Part shown: piece after piece, positions 15,470 to 61,309 of the stretch | Position numbering within the stretch: the stretch's first letter is position 1 | Layout: the number at the start of each line of letters is the position of its first letter | Source of the DNA: Escherichia coli O157:H7 | Lineage (GTDB): Bacteria > Pseudomonadota > Gammaproteobacteria > Enterobacterales > Enterobacteriaceae | DNA: 64,000 nt | Reading direction: 5' to 3' (one strand) | NCBI RefSeq assembly: GCF_013167455.1 | Contig: NZ_CP038328.1 | The notes under the pieces: generated by a model | What the model was told of the DNA's origin: nothing | The model's input: only the letters and a program-made list of their open reading frames with translations | Database searches by the model: none | Program-made: the position numbers and the translations under genes

Positions 15470-15795
<326 letters not shown>

Positions 15796-40118: not shown

Positions 40119-40508
<390 letters not shown>

Positions 40509-40688
40509 TCACTTCCTTTTTTATTTACACTTCATCCTTCACACTGCCTCATCGACGACTACGCTCATTCGACCGGGTCACGTACTGCGAGTACGCTCCC
40601 CGGCCCTCATTCACTTTCCGTCTCGATGCAGTGCGAATGATTTTGTGTAATTTTTTAGTTTATAGCGCGGCAGGTCGCGCCAGTTTTT

Positions 40689-58784: not shown

Positions 58785-60128
58785 ATGTTAAACAGTATTT
58801 TAGTCATACTCTGCTTGATCGCTGTAAGTGCGTTCTTCTCGATGTCTGAGATCTCACTTGCCGCCTCACGCAAAATCAAACTTAAACTGCTGGCTGATGA
58901 AGGCAATATAAATGCCCAACGCGTTCTGAATATGCAGGAAAATCCCGGCATGTTCTTTACCGTGGTCCAAATCGGTCTGAACGCAGTGGCGATTCTCGGC
59001 GGTATCGTCGGTGATGCGGCATTTTCTCCAGCTTTTCACAGCCTGTTCTCCCGCTATATGTCGGCAGAGCTCTCTGAGCAACTGAGCTTTATTCTCTCTT
59101 TCTCGTTAGTGACTGGCATGTTTATCCTGTTTGCGGATTTAACCCCGAAACGCATCGGTATGATTGCGCCAGAAGCTGTGGCTTTGCGTATCATCAACCC
59201 GATGCGCTTCTGCCTGTACGTTTGCACCCCGCTGGTGTGGTTCTTCAACGGCCTGGCGAACATAATCTTCCGTATTTTCAAACTGCCAATGGTACGTAAA
59301 GATGACATCACTTCTGATGACATCTACGCGGTAGTGGAAGCCGGTGCGCTGGCGGGCGTGTTACGTAAACAGGAACACGAGCTGATTGAAAACGTCTTTG
59401 AGCTGGAATCCCGTACCGTTCCGTCTTCAATGACACCGCGTGAAAACGTGATTTGGTTTGATCTCCACGAAGATGAGCAAAGTCTGAAAAATAAGGTGGC
59501 GGAACATCCGCACTCTAAGTTCCTCGTCTGTAATGAAGATATTGACCACATCATCGGCTATGTCGATTCTAAAGACCTGCTGAACCGCGTGCTGGCTAAC
59601 CAAAGCCTGGCACTGAACAGCGGCGTACAAATTCGCAACACGCTGATTGTGCCGGATACGTTAACCCTTTCAGAGGCGTTGGAAAGTTTTAAAACCGCAG
59701 GAGAAGACTTCGCGGTGATCATGAACGAGTACGCGCTGGTAGTGGGGATCATCACCCTCAACGACGTGATGACCACGCTGATGGGCGATCTGGTCGGTCA
59801 GGGACTGGAAGAGCAGATTGTCGCCCGTGATGAGAACTCATGGCTGATTGACGGCGGCACTCCGATTGACGACGTCATGCGCGTGCTGGATATTGACGAG
59901 TTCCCGCAGTCGGGCAACTACGAAACCATCGGCGGCTTTATGATGTTTATGCTGCGTAAGATCCCGAAACGCACCGATTCGGTGAAATTCGCCGGCTACA
60001 AATTTGAAGTGGTGGATATCGATAACTACCGCATCGACCAGCTGCTGGTGACCCGGATCGACAGCAAGGCCACAGCCCTTTCGCCAAAACTGCCTGACGC
60101 TAAAGATAAAGAAGAAAGCGTCGCGTAA
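58785..60128 (+). CDS. ytfL: CNNM/CorC-family inner-membrane protein YtfL (DUF21 + CBS + CorC_HlyC)
   Basis: 447-aa translation with N-terminal membrane domain and C-terminal CBS-pair region. Confidence 0.85.
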   Translation: MLNSILVILCLIAVSAFFSMSEISLAASRKIKLKLLADEGNINAQRVLNMQENPGMFFTVVQIGLNAVAILGGIVGDAAFSPAFHSLFSRYMSAELSEQLSFILSFSLVTGMFILFADLTPKRIGMIAPEAVALRIINPMRFCLYVCTPLVWFFNGLANIIFRIFKLPMVRKDDITSDDIYAVVEAGALAGVLRKQEHELIENVFELESRTVPSSMTPRENVIWFDLHEDEQSLKNKVAEHPHSKFLVCNEDIDHIIGYVDSKDLLNRVLANQSLALNSGVQIRNTLIVPDTLTLSEALESFKTAGEDFAVIMNEYALVVGIITLNDVMTTLMGDLVGQGLEEQIVARDENSWLIDGGTPIDDVMRVLDIDEFPQSGNYETIGGFMMFMLRKIPKRTDSVKFAGYKFEVVDIDNYRIDQLLVTRIDSKATALSPKLPDAKDKEESVA

Positions 60129-60144
60129 CCCCCATAAACATCAA

Positions 60145-60165
60145 CGGCTCCTGAATCAGGAGCCG
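60145..60165. terminator. Hairpin terminator between convergent ytfL and ytfK
   Basis: CGGCTCCTGA-ATC-AGGAGCCG perfect hairpin. Confidence 0.5.
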
Positions 60166-60170
60166 TCTTA

Positions 60171-60221
60171 TTACTGCATAGCACTTTTTACTGCATAGCA
60201 CTTTTTACTGCATAGCACTTT
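60171..60221. repeat. Three perfect tandem copies of a 17-bp unit (TTACTGCATAGCACTTT)
   Basis: Counted base by base; located immediately 3' of ytfK and of the ytfL terminator hairpin. Confidence 0.85.
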
Positions 60222-60223
60222 GG

Positions 60224-60430
60224 TTAAGCCATCTCTGTTTGCAGACGCATAACCTGACGGTTAACTTCGGACATCACTGACAAATGCAGCTTATCCTTCA
60301 CTTTTGGGATAAGAATCTTACCCTTATCGAATTCAAAAGCGCCAACGTCCTTGATGTATAATCGTCCACGGAACAGGATCTTTACGTACTTCGCCACCTG
60401 AAGTGGGTTGTACCGTTGGAAAATTTTCAT
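60224..60430 (-). CDS. ytfK: Small protein YtfK (DUF1107)
   Basis: 68-aa translation [28 protein letters not shown]...; ORF track begins 22 codons upstream. Confidence 0.8.
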
Positions 60431-60754
60431 TGTTATCTCCTGCTGAGTATTACGCCTGTGCGGTGCCACAATCGGCCCAACTATTATGAGGCGCAAATTT
60501 TAATGCTTAGTGACTATAGACTATCCGGGCAATGTTTCCACCGCGTATAACTTTTTTTACCTAAAGGTTACAATTATTCAGAATTATCTTTTTACCGAAG
60601 CGCGGTCTTCAGTATAAGCATTCATTTTTCATATGATTTGTGCGCTTGACCGCAAACTGGCATCACACTTGCGGGAAATTCGATAAATAGCACATATGAT
60701 TAAAACTCAGACCCAAGTGGTCGGATCACCTGCATATCATAAGAAGGAAACACC

Positions 60755-61309
60755 ATGACCCTACGCAAGATTCTGGCACTCACCTGCCTGCTGTTGCCGA
60801 TGATGGCTTCCGCACATCAGTTCGAAACCGGTCAGCGAGTGCCGCCGATTGGCATTACCGATCGGGGCGAGTTGGTGCTTGATAAAGATCAGTTTAGCTA
60901 CAAAACCTGGAACAGCGCGCAGTTAGTGGGAAAAGTGCGAGTACTGCAACATATTGCTGGTCGCACCTCTGCAAAAGAGAAAAACGCGACGCTGATTGAA
61001 GCGATTAAATCAGCGAAGTTACCGCACGATCGTTACCAGACCACCACCATTGTTAACACCGACGACGCGATTCCGGGTTCCGGCATGTTTGTGCGCAGCA
61101 GTCTGGAGAGTAATAAAAAGCTTTATCCCTGGTCGCAGTTTATTGTCGATAGCAATGGCGTCGCGCGCGGTGCCTGGCAGCTGGATGAAGAAAGTTCCGC
61201 TGTAGTGGTGCTGGATAAAGACGGTCGCGTGCAATGGGCCAAAGACGGGGCGCTCACTCAGGAAGAGGTGCAGCAAGTGATGGACCTGCTGCAAAAGTTG
61301 CTCAAATAA
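60755..61309 (+). CDS. ytfJ: Periplasmic protein YtfJ
   Basis: 184-aa translation with signal peptide. Confidence 0.8.
   Translation: MTLRKILALTCLLLPMMASAHQFETGQRVPPIGITDRGELVLDKDQFSYKTWNSAQLVGKVRVLQHIAGRTSAKEKNATLIEAIKSAKLPHDRYQTTTIVNTDDAIPGSGMFVRSSLESNKKLYPWSQFIVDSNGVARGAWQLDEESSAVVVLDKDGRVQWAKDGALTQEEVQQVMDLLQKLLK

Follow-up and report, generated by a model that had tools for sequence, protein, structure and literature searches.

The region between the convergent genes ytfL and ytfK of Escherichia coli O157:H7 contains three perfect 17-bp tandem repeats, and our analysis suggests that this array is probably a tandemly amplified pairing site for the small RNA FnrS in the 3'UTR of ytfK. That FnrS really pairs at the sites of the array can be stated with high confidence. 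The best reading of the data is that an ancient single FnrS site has recently been multiplied in K-12, in some uropathogenic strains and in O157:H7. An earlier note on this DNA had described the array without its complementarity to FnrS, and the unit as FnrS docking site is a new finding. All positions given below refer to the window, by which we mean the whole 64-kb stretch of DNA that was analysed, and the features of the locus are summarized in Table 1.

Table 1. Features of the ytfL-ytfK intergenic region and its neighbouring genes
Feature	Position	Strand	Description
17-nt unit x3, perfect	60171..60221	-	variable-number array; each unit reads AAAGUGCUAUGCAGUAA on the ytfK mRNA
Hairpin, GC-rich	60143..60167	both strands	GACGGCUCC-UGAUUCA-GGAGCCGUU on the ytfK strand; scored terminator-like
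FnrS site 1, terminator-proximal	60170..60184	-	mRNA GUGCUAUGCAGUAAU, 15-nt perfect complement of FnrS nt 64-78; duplex -24.8 kcal/mol
FnrS site 2	60188..60201	-	14-nt perfect complement of FnrS nt 65-78; duplex -23.7 kcal/mol
FnrS site 3, nearest to the stop codon	60205..60218	-	14-nt perfect complement of FnrS nt 65-78
ytfK	60224..60430	-	68 aa, DUF1107, annotated as stringent-response modulator; stop codon 2 nt from the array
ytfL (now annotated paeA)	58785..60128	+	convergent with ytfK; transcript expected to stop at the hairpin and not to reach the array

The repeat array and its copy number

The sequence TTACTGCATAGCACTTT occurs three times head to tail without a single mismatch (60171-60187, 60188-60204 and 60205-60221), and the array is followed by GG (60222-60223) and then by TTA (60224-60226), the minus-strand stop codon of ytfK. 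Tandem Repeats Finder reported the array at 60167-60221 with a period of 17, a copy number of 3.2 and a score of 103. When the 64-kb window was searched for TTACTGCATAGCACTTT with up to three mismatches allowed, only the three array sites were found, and three matches were reached in none of 100 shuffles (mean 0.15). Thus, the three perfect 17-bp tandem repeats that the earlier note had described were confirmed by sequence reading, by Tandem Repeats Finder and by pattern search. Its placement of the array after a hairpin and 2 bp before the ytfK stop codon agrees with the sequence, and the convergent genes had been correctly identified.

The hairpin (60143/4-60166/7) is located 4 nt upstream of the first unit, has an intrinsic-terminator score on both strands and is kept across genera in our alignment. 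It is predicted to form the end of the ytfK 3'UTR and to serve as terminator of ytfL/paeA. Because the hairpin terminates in both directions, the array should be located inside the ytfK transcript (3'UTR) and outside of the terminated ytfL transcript. This has consequences for the previous suggestion that the repeats might affect the 3'-end of either gene. Such an effect is plausible for ytfK, which carries the array in its 3'-end, but not for ytfL, the terminated transcript of which does not include it.

An action in cis on termination or 3'-end stability of ytfK or ytfL, which would be independent of FnrS and would operate via stop-hairpin spacing or hairpin folding, appears improbable to us. 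It is true that the array abuts a two-way terminator and that the distance between the ytfK stop codon and the hairpin increases from 22 nt in the one-unit allele to 56 nt in the three-unit allele. However, the predicted hairpin is not altered by the repeats, and in the predicted centroid fold of the 3'UTR the terminator hairpin is formed and the array remains almost unpaired. The units do not involve a stable stem, and the combination of GC-rich hairpin and U-tract that characterizes intrinsic terminators is present in the neighbouring hairpin and not in the units. For ytfL, the array is located downstream of the hairpin. Moreover, the spacer length varies freely among genera, whereas the FnrS-complementary block does not.

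An Rfam scan of positions 59500-61000 yielded no match at E ≤ 1. The array does not belong to a dispersed intergenic family such as REP/BIME or ERIC: it is a single site in the 64-kb window, and a flanked-unit probe hit a median of one place per genome in complete E. coli genomes. A LexA box or another operator was considered by eye and rejected, the motif TACTG recurring as direct repeat only without an inverted half-site.

Two other repeats were observed in the window. At 23773-23950, Tandem Repeats Finder detected an 18-bp repeat (9.9 copies, 93% identity), which is located inside a 584-aa open reading frame (22751-24505, minus strand) and encodes hexapeptide repeats of the QKLNN / QELNNS type; presumably, it resembles the coding repeat with an 18-bp unit used for MLVA typing of O157:H7. 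At 15473-15768, a 96-bp unit (3.1 copies, 93% identity) contains GCCGGATGCGGCGTGAACGCCTTATCCGAC-type sequence and, judged by this sequence, resembles a group of palindromic REP/BIME elements.

Of 5,426 complete E. coli genomes screened with a 501-nt query, 5,420 contained the ytfL-ytfK locus, and spans of 501, 484 and 467 nt corresponded to three, two and one units, respectively. Genomes of O157:H7 were 100% identical to the window. The alleles were counted as exact matches to probes in which n units were framed by 30 nt of flank on each side. The 80%-coverage figure of the short probes was unusable because offset pieces were joined into one place, and the band of at least 99% identity, the surplus places and the spans were used instead. 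One unit was present in 3,857 genomes (about 71%), which include ST131 and most strains, two units in 1,022 genomes (K-12 derivatives, CFT073, NC101, BEN2908 and some O157:H7 strains, namely PV15-279, 644-PT8 and DEC4E), three units in about 213-219 genomes (O157:H7 Sakai, EDL933 and Xuzhou21) and four units in 3 genomes (strain 472, O157:H7 PA20 and 20R2R, a "culture mutant"); these counts refer to exact probe sequences, SNPs being present in the probe region of about 320 further genomes, and alleles of five or more units may exist. Among the three-unit genomes listed, all were O157:H7 or O157-like, and inside O157:H7 the copy number ranged from 2 to 4. When the one-, two- and three-unit alleles were aligned directly, the units were perfect and the flanks identical, and the four-unit allele of strain 472 was also read directly.

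These data show that the array is a true VNTR, the number of units varying between strains within a single species. The alleles are scattered over unrelated lineages and vary between 2 and 4 units inside O157:H7, a pattern that indicates recurrent gain and loss of units. The extra units may have originated from replication slippage or from unequal exchange between the AA-flanked copies. The strain comparison that the earlier note had proposed thus yielded alleles of 1, 2, 3 or 4 perfect units, and this finding supports both its suggestion of a variable-number repeat and its assumption of a recent expansion. Of the two outcomes it had named as speaking against its view, invariance and membership in a known dispersed family, neither was observed. 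In the literature searched, we found no paper that uses the ytfL-ytfK repeat as typing marker.

One genome, that of E. coli RM13745 (NZ_CP044312.1), deviates from this pattern. In place of the 3' half of paeA, the repeat and the terminal part of ytfK, it has poly-G-rich sequence (about 200 nt) and then AT-rich sequence of low complexity (extracted-locus positions 150-780). Most likely, this replacement is due to an error of assembly or sequencing in the record.

Complementarity to FnrS and Hfq-bound chimeras

As reference sequence we employed fnrS of MG1655, an annotated ncRNA that matches Rfam RF01796 at 134.8 bits. On the plus strand, window positions 60170-60184 are identical to FnrS nucleotides 64-78 (AUUACUGCAUAGCAC, exact word match); for units 2 and 3, the identity covers nucleotides 65-78. 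Because the plus strand of the unit is identical to an FnrS segment, the ytfK mRNA carries three perfect FnrS-complementary sites, and in each unit it is GUGCUAUGCAGUAA that constitutes the perfect complement of nucleotides 65-78. Site 1 is the one that is also found in single-copy strains and in other genera. No other FnrS words of 14 nt or longer were detected on either strand of the 64 kb. A simple calculation shows that only about 0.01 chance matches of 15 nt would be expected between an RNA of 122 nt and the two strands of 64 kb. The literature searched, which was mostly outside subscription journals, gave no paper describing the ytfK-FnrS complementarity or the repeat, and ytfK was mentioned together with FnrS or with a sponge only in a RIL-seq preprint and in one prediction paper.

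When the full-length RNAs were analysed with RNAduplex, pairing was found all over and shuffles were nearly as good; single-site duplexes, co-folding and a sliding window were used instead. Compared with the free RNAs, co-folding of full FnrS with the 3'UTR gave an energy gain of -17 to -19 kcal/mol if at least one unit was present and of -1.9 kcal/mol if there was none. In multi-strand folding, each FnrS molecule up to the number of units contributed about -18 kcal/mol and surplus FnrS only about -9 kcal/mol. When the whole ytfK transcript was scanned with the sliding window, the repeat region turned out to be the best FnrS-pairing stretch. FnrS nucleotides 64-78 are located inside stem-loop II of the Rfam consensus structure, outside of the established seed region, and thus FnrS must partly unfold for pairing. 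The cost of opening is included in the co-folding energies, and according to this prediction both RNA partners are opened and a net gain is kept.

In the ytfK mRNA, AGUAAAAAG is found at the junctions between units and AGUAAUAAG behind the last unit, and both represent three A-R-N triplets. If we read the sequence correctly, these triplets constitute a motif of the Hfq distal-face type, which would be consistent with the effect of Hfq Y25D reported below. As a separate observation, UAAGACGG, which follows the terminator-proximal unit (60160-60184, minus strand), could also pair with FnrS nucleotides 43-50 (UUGUCUUA) via 6 Watson-Crick and 2 G·U pairs, and the lowest sliding-window energy (-29.1 kcal/mol) was obtained here. 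This extra pairing would need opening of the hairpin, GACGG being part of the terminator stem.

In another part of the window, the ribosome-binding region of cybC (cytochrome b562; 40119-40522, minus strand) involves AAAAAAGGAAGU (40511-40522), a 12-nt perfect complement of FnrS nucleotides 50-61 (U-rich stretch), and cybC codons near 40417-40429 form a 13-nt perfect complement of nucleotides 37-49. Judged by this complementarity, cybC is a candidate for an FnrS target of O157:H7 that has so far been overlooked; in the K-12 RIL-seq supplements examined it is absent.

In published RIL-seq data of K-12 (PMC12262471, Table S4), the pair ytfK.EST3UTR-FnrS heads the list in each of the two replicates of the wild type (112,573 and 85,192 chimeras), and the paper gives this pair one sentence without explanation. 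With Hfq R16A (rim), 11 chimeras were counted in one replicate and none was detected in the other. With Hfq Y25D (distal face), the numbers were 995 and 1,985, which corresponds to an approximately 50-100-fold drop, and with Hfq K31A they were 11,463 and 14,864, the pair then ranking second. In all cases listed, ytfK is RNA1 and FnrS is RNA2. The ytfK region in this data set is a broad interval (4439412-4439899) labelled 3'UTR, which is coarser than nucleotide resolution, and the evidence concerns the two-unit allele of K-12. For RIL-seq the cells were pelleted for 10 min, and pelleting itself may induce FnrS; with in-vivo-ligation iRIL-seq, the ytfK-FnrS pair was not detected. A mapping artefact was considered as origin of the chimeras and dismissed: the FnrS-identical sequence is located on the strand opposite to ytfK and the chimeras are on the ytfK sense strand. 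In Salmonella, ytfK was enriched 31.8-fold by Hfq co-immunoprecipitation (PMC2515195). We found no mention of ytfK in the Hfq-CLASH, RNase E-CLASH and Tree 2014 supplements. Taken together, the literature documents a physical association of ytfK and FnrS on Hfq in vivo in K-12, and the repeat unit explains, at the level of sequence, the RNA pair that was found most often on Hfq in a recent RIL-seq study of E. coli.

The ytfK-first orientation and the dependence on the distal face represent the behaviour of an mRNA target and not that of an sRNA-like sponge, and neither of them decides the outcome. Alternatively, the ytfK 3'UTR might mainly be an FnrS sponge. According to this scenario, phosphate starvation or oxidative stress would induce ytfK, FnrS would be titrated or destabilised and its targets would be de-repressed, with ytfK expression being unaffected. 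We consider this scenario a possible but somewhat doubtful one, and the same reserve applies to its extension that more units make a stronger sponge. It is backed by the 14-15-nt perfect complementarity, which exceeds typical seed pairing, and by the fact that the ytfK pair accounts for 112,573 of the approximately 539,000 FnrS chimeras in replicate 1 (about 21%; PMC12262471). In addition, the folding data support multivalency, mRNA-embedded sponges are a known class and enterohaemorrhagic E. coli already has another anti-FnrS RNA, AsxR (PMC4104026). On the other hand, ytfK is listed only as RNA1, its pairing depends on the distal face as for mRNA targets, and the site leaves the seed region of FnrS free.

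Conservation of the site and of FnrS

A YtfK scan with one genome per species yielded 80 loci. In the majority of the Enterobacteriaceae genera covered, a single GTGCTATGCAGTA(A) block is located 2-12 nt past the stop codon of ytfK. It was found in Escherichia species, Salmonella, Citrobacter, Enterobacter, Kosakonia and Trabulsiella as well as in Lelliottia, Leclercia, Yokenella, Pluralibacter and Phytobacter. Contiguous pairing of at least 12 nt that ends at FnrS nucleotide 78 and is located at most 60 nt from the ytfK stop codon was observed in 66 of the 80 species versus 17 of 400 shuffles. In an alignment of 16 genera the GTGCTATGCAGTA block was conserved and the spacers on either side were rich in indels. 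In the Citrobacter freundii group, one A of the site is replaced by G, and a G·U pair is kept. The site is degraded or lost in Klebsiella, some Raoultella, Franconibacter and a few other genera, which means that it is dispensable there. Outside E. coli, no full tandem duplication was found among the 80 species loci.

FnrS was recovered from eight further genera via its zntB neighbours. Nucleotides 1-93 were identical in nine genera, and in 5,389 of 5,392 E. coli genomes FnrS was at least 99% identical. FnrS is thus a fixed partner that offers no changes for compensatory covariation. A conserved island that faces an invariant partner is what one would predict for a functional pairing site.

In several genera, the full site is followed at a distance of 5-8 nt downstream by a second, partial copy of its 3' half (GCAGTA or GCAGTAA), for instance GTGCTATGCAGTAGTTAAAGCAGTATA. 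Such copies were seen in Lelliottia, Leclercia, Citrobacter sp. and Phytobacter/Kosakonia sp. (extracted-locus positions ~1725-1745), and their sequences hint at independent partial duplications of the FnrS-site element outside E. coli. In the ytfK 5'UTR, 13-nt matches to FnrS nucleotides 25-38 (extracted-locus positions 1471-1487) were noticed in the Citrobacter freundii group and in Kosakonia. They are probably not meaningful, being G·U-rich and directed to the inside of the stable first FnrS stem-loop; in E. coli and Salmonella they are absent.

The conservation pattern also bears on the idea that the array might be a protein-binding iteron or operator, that is, a DNA site for a replication or regulatory protein, which had been put forward in the earlier note. 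We regard this idea as extremely improbable. Its one argument is the form of the array, tandem direct repeats with a 17-bp unit similar to iteron sizes. Iterons are located beside an origin or a rep gene and are present in several copies wherever the element is found. In contrast, the locus described here is chromosomal, lies between convergent genes and has no replication gene nearby. The unit is found nowhere else in the window, it is present only once in about 71% of E. coli and in other genera, and it is not in tandem in the 80 loci of other species. Moreover, conservation matches the RNA partner exactly, and TGC..GCA is the only inverted symmetry seen in the unit.

Possible consequences and comparison with known systems

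Both the tolerance of H2O2 and the SpoT-dependent synthesis of ppGpp are supported by YtfK, and FnrS turns down aerobic and oxidative-stress functions. According to our preferred reading of the array as an amplified FnrS site, FnrS, which is induced anaerobically, would dock on the ytfK 3'UTR, and the ytfK mRNA would probably be held on the distal face of Hfq via its A-rich AGUAAAAAG and AGUAAUAAG. Docking would couple the fate of the ytfK mRNA to FnrS, and the most likely outcome would be destabilisation. This outcome is favoured because it fits both the shut-off of aerobic and oxidative-stress functions by FnrS and the connection of YtfK with H2O2 and the stringent response. Since the ytfK mRNA is abundant, docking may also draw FnrS away from its other targets. 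We infer that ytfK is an FnrS target, an FnrS soak or both. Whether FnrS changes ytfK expression appears evenly balanced to us, and we only tentatively expect, with slightly less than even confidence, that the ytfK 3'UTR measurably titrates FnrS.

If docking takes place in this way, the number of units would set the number of FnrS molecules held per ytfK mRNA, and O157:H7 with its three, rarely four, units would have the largest FnrS capacity. A measurable effect of the unit copy number is conceivable, but we are inclined to doubt it. The competing reading is that the FnrS site is functional and that its copy number is neutral. The ancestral site would then suffice, and the extra units would be slippage products that serve as strain marker only. 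We give this reading appreciable weight, if not quite an even chance. Most E. coli manage with one unit (~71%), the 80 loci of other species are free of full duplications, and the units are perfect and thus young. The scatter of the alleles (two units in K-12, CFT073, NC101 and some O157:H7, one in ST131, 2-4 within O157:H7) is typical of a mutation-driven pattern. However, every added unit is a full-strength and accessible FnrS site in the folding model, the two-unit allele of K-12 gives the top RIL-seq chimera, and the three-unit allele is widespread among the listed genomes of the successful O157:H7 lineage.

One may go further and suppose that the number of sites is a heritable tuning knob driven by slippage. 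Above all in O157:H7, more FnrS would then be held, repression of the regulon (sodB, chuS) would be weaker and the link between oxygen and ppGpp synthesis via YtfK/SpoT would be tighter. We consider this rather unlikely. If it were true, O157:H7 would have two independent routes to dampen FnrS, the phage RNA AsxR and an expanded array of the core genome, and the array would be the first copy-number-variable, multivalent small-RNA binding array in bacteria. The amplified FnrS site, which we regard as the more general reading, would represent a deeply conserved 3'UTR site that employs a part of FnrS outside of the seed region reported for other targets, and it would connect the control exerted by a small RNA in anaerobiosis with YtfK, which activates the SpoT-dependent stringent response. 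Since the number of units is 2 in K-12, 1 in the majority of commensal and clinical strains and 3, sometimes 4, in O157:H7, results on FnrS or ytfK obtained with K-12 may not hold for other strains.

The FnrS targets described so far pair with the seed region at or near their ribosome-binding sites. ytfK resembles the validated targets (sodB, maeA, gpmA, folE and folX, and chuS in enterohaemorrhagic E. coli) in Hfq-dependent antisense pairing, in its role as RNA1 and in the need for both the rim and the distal face of Hfq, and it fits their oxidative-stress theme. It differs from them in that its site is located in the 3'UTR past the stop codon and not at the ribosome-binding site, and that the pairing is perfect over 14-15 nt and occurs in tandem 1-4 times. 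Unlike chuS and the other seed-paired targets, ytfK involves FnrS nucleotides 64-78 (stem-loop II).

AsxR, an anti-sRNA encoded by the Stx2 phage of O157:H7, pairs with the terminator loop of FnrS and destabilises FnrS (PMC4104026, Tree et al. 2014). Like AsxR, the ytfK sites belong to an O157:H7 RNA that base-pairs with FnrS and might lower FnrS activity. Whereas AsxR is a phage sRNA directed to the terminator loop, the ytfK sites are part of the core genome, are located in an mRNA 3'UTR, pair with nucleotides 64-78 and are present in several copies. With sponges that are embedded in longer transcripts (the chbBC spacer with ChiX, SroC with GcvB, 3'ETS-leuZ with RyhB/RybB, skatA with PrrF1, and AspX), the ytfK site shares an extended complementarity to an Hfq-bound sRNA. 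In contrast to these, it is amplified as identical tandem units, the number of which depends on the strain, and its sponge function is putative. In the literature searched, a strain-variable tandem array of sRNA sites was not found described for any bacterial sponge.

Eukaryotic 3'UTRs may carry multiple microRNA response elements, and microRNA sponges consist of identical sites in a row, the number of sites setting the dose response. The resemblance of the ytfK array to such microRNA sites is an analogy only, since it concerns another domain of life, involves Hfq and not Argonaute, and is not based on homology. As a repeat locus, the array resembles the VNTR loci used for MLVA of O157:H7, its repeats being perfect and arranged head to tail and its copy number varying between strains and within O157:H7 (2-4). 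Unlike these loci, it has a very low range (1-4), and its unit has an identifiable, predicted role at the RNA level.
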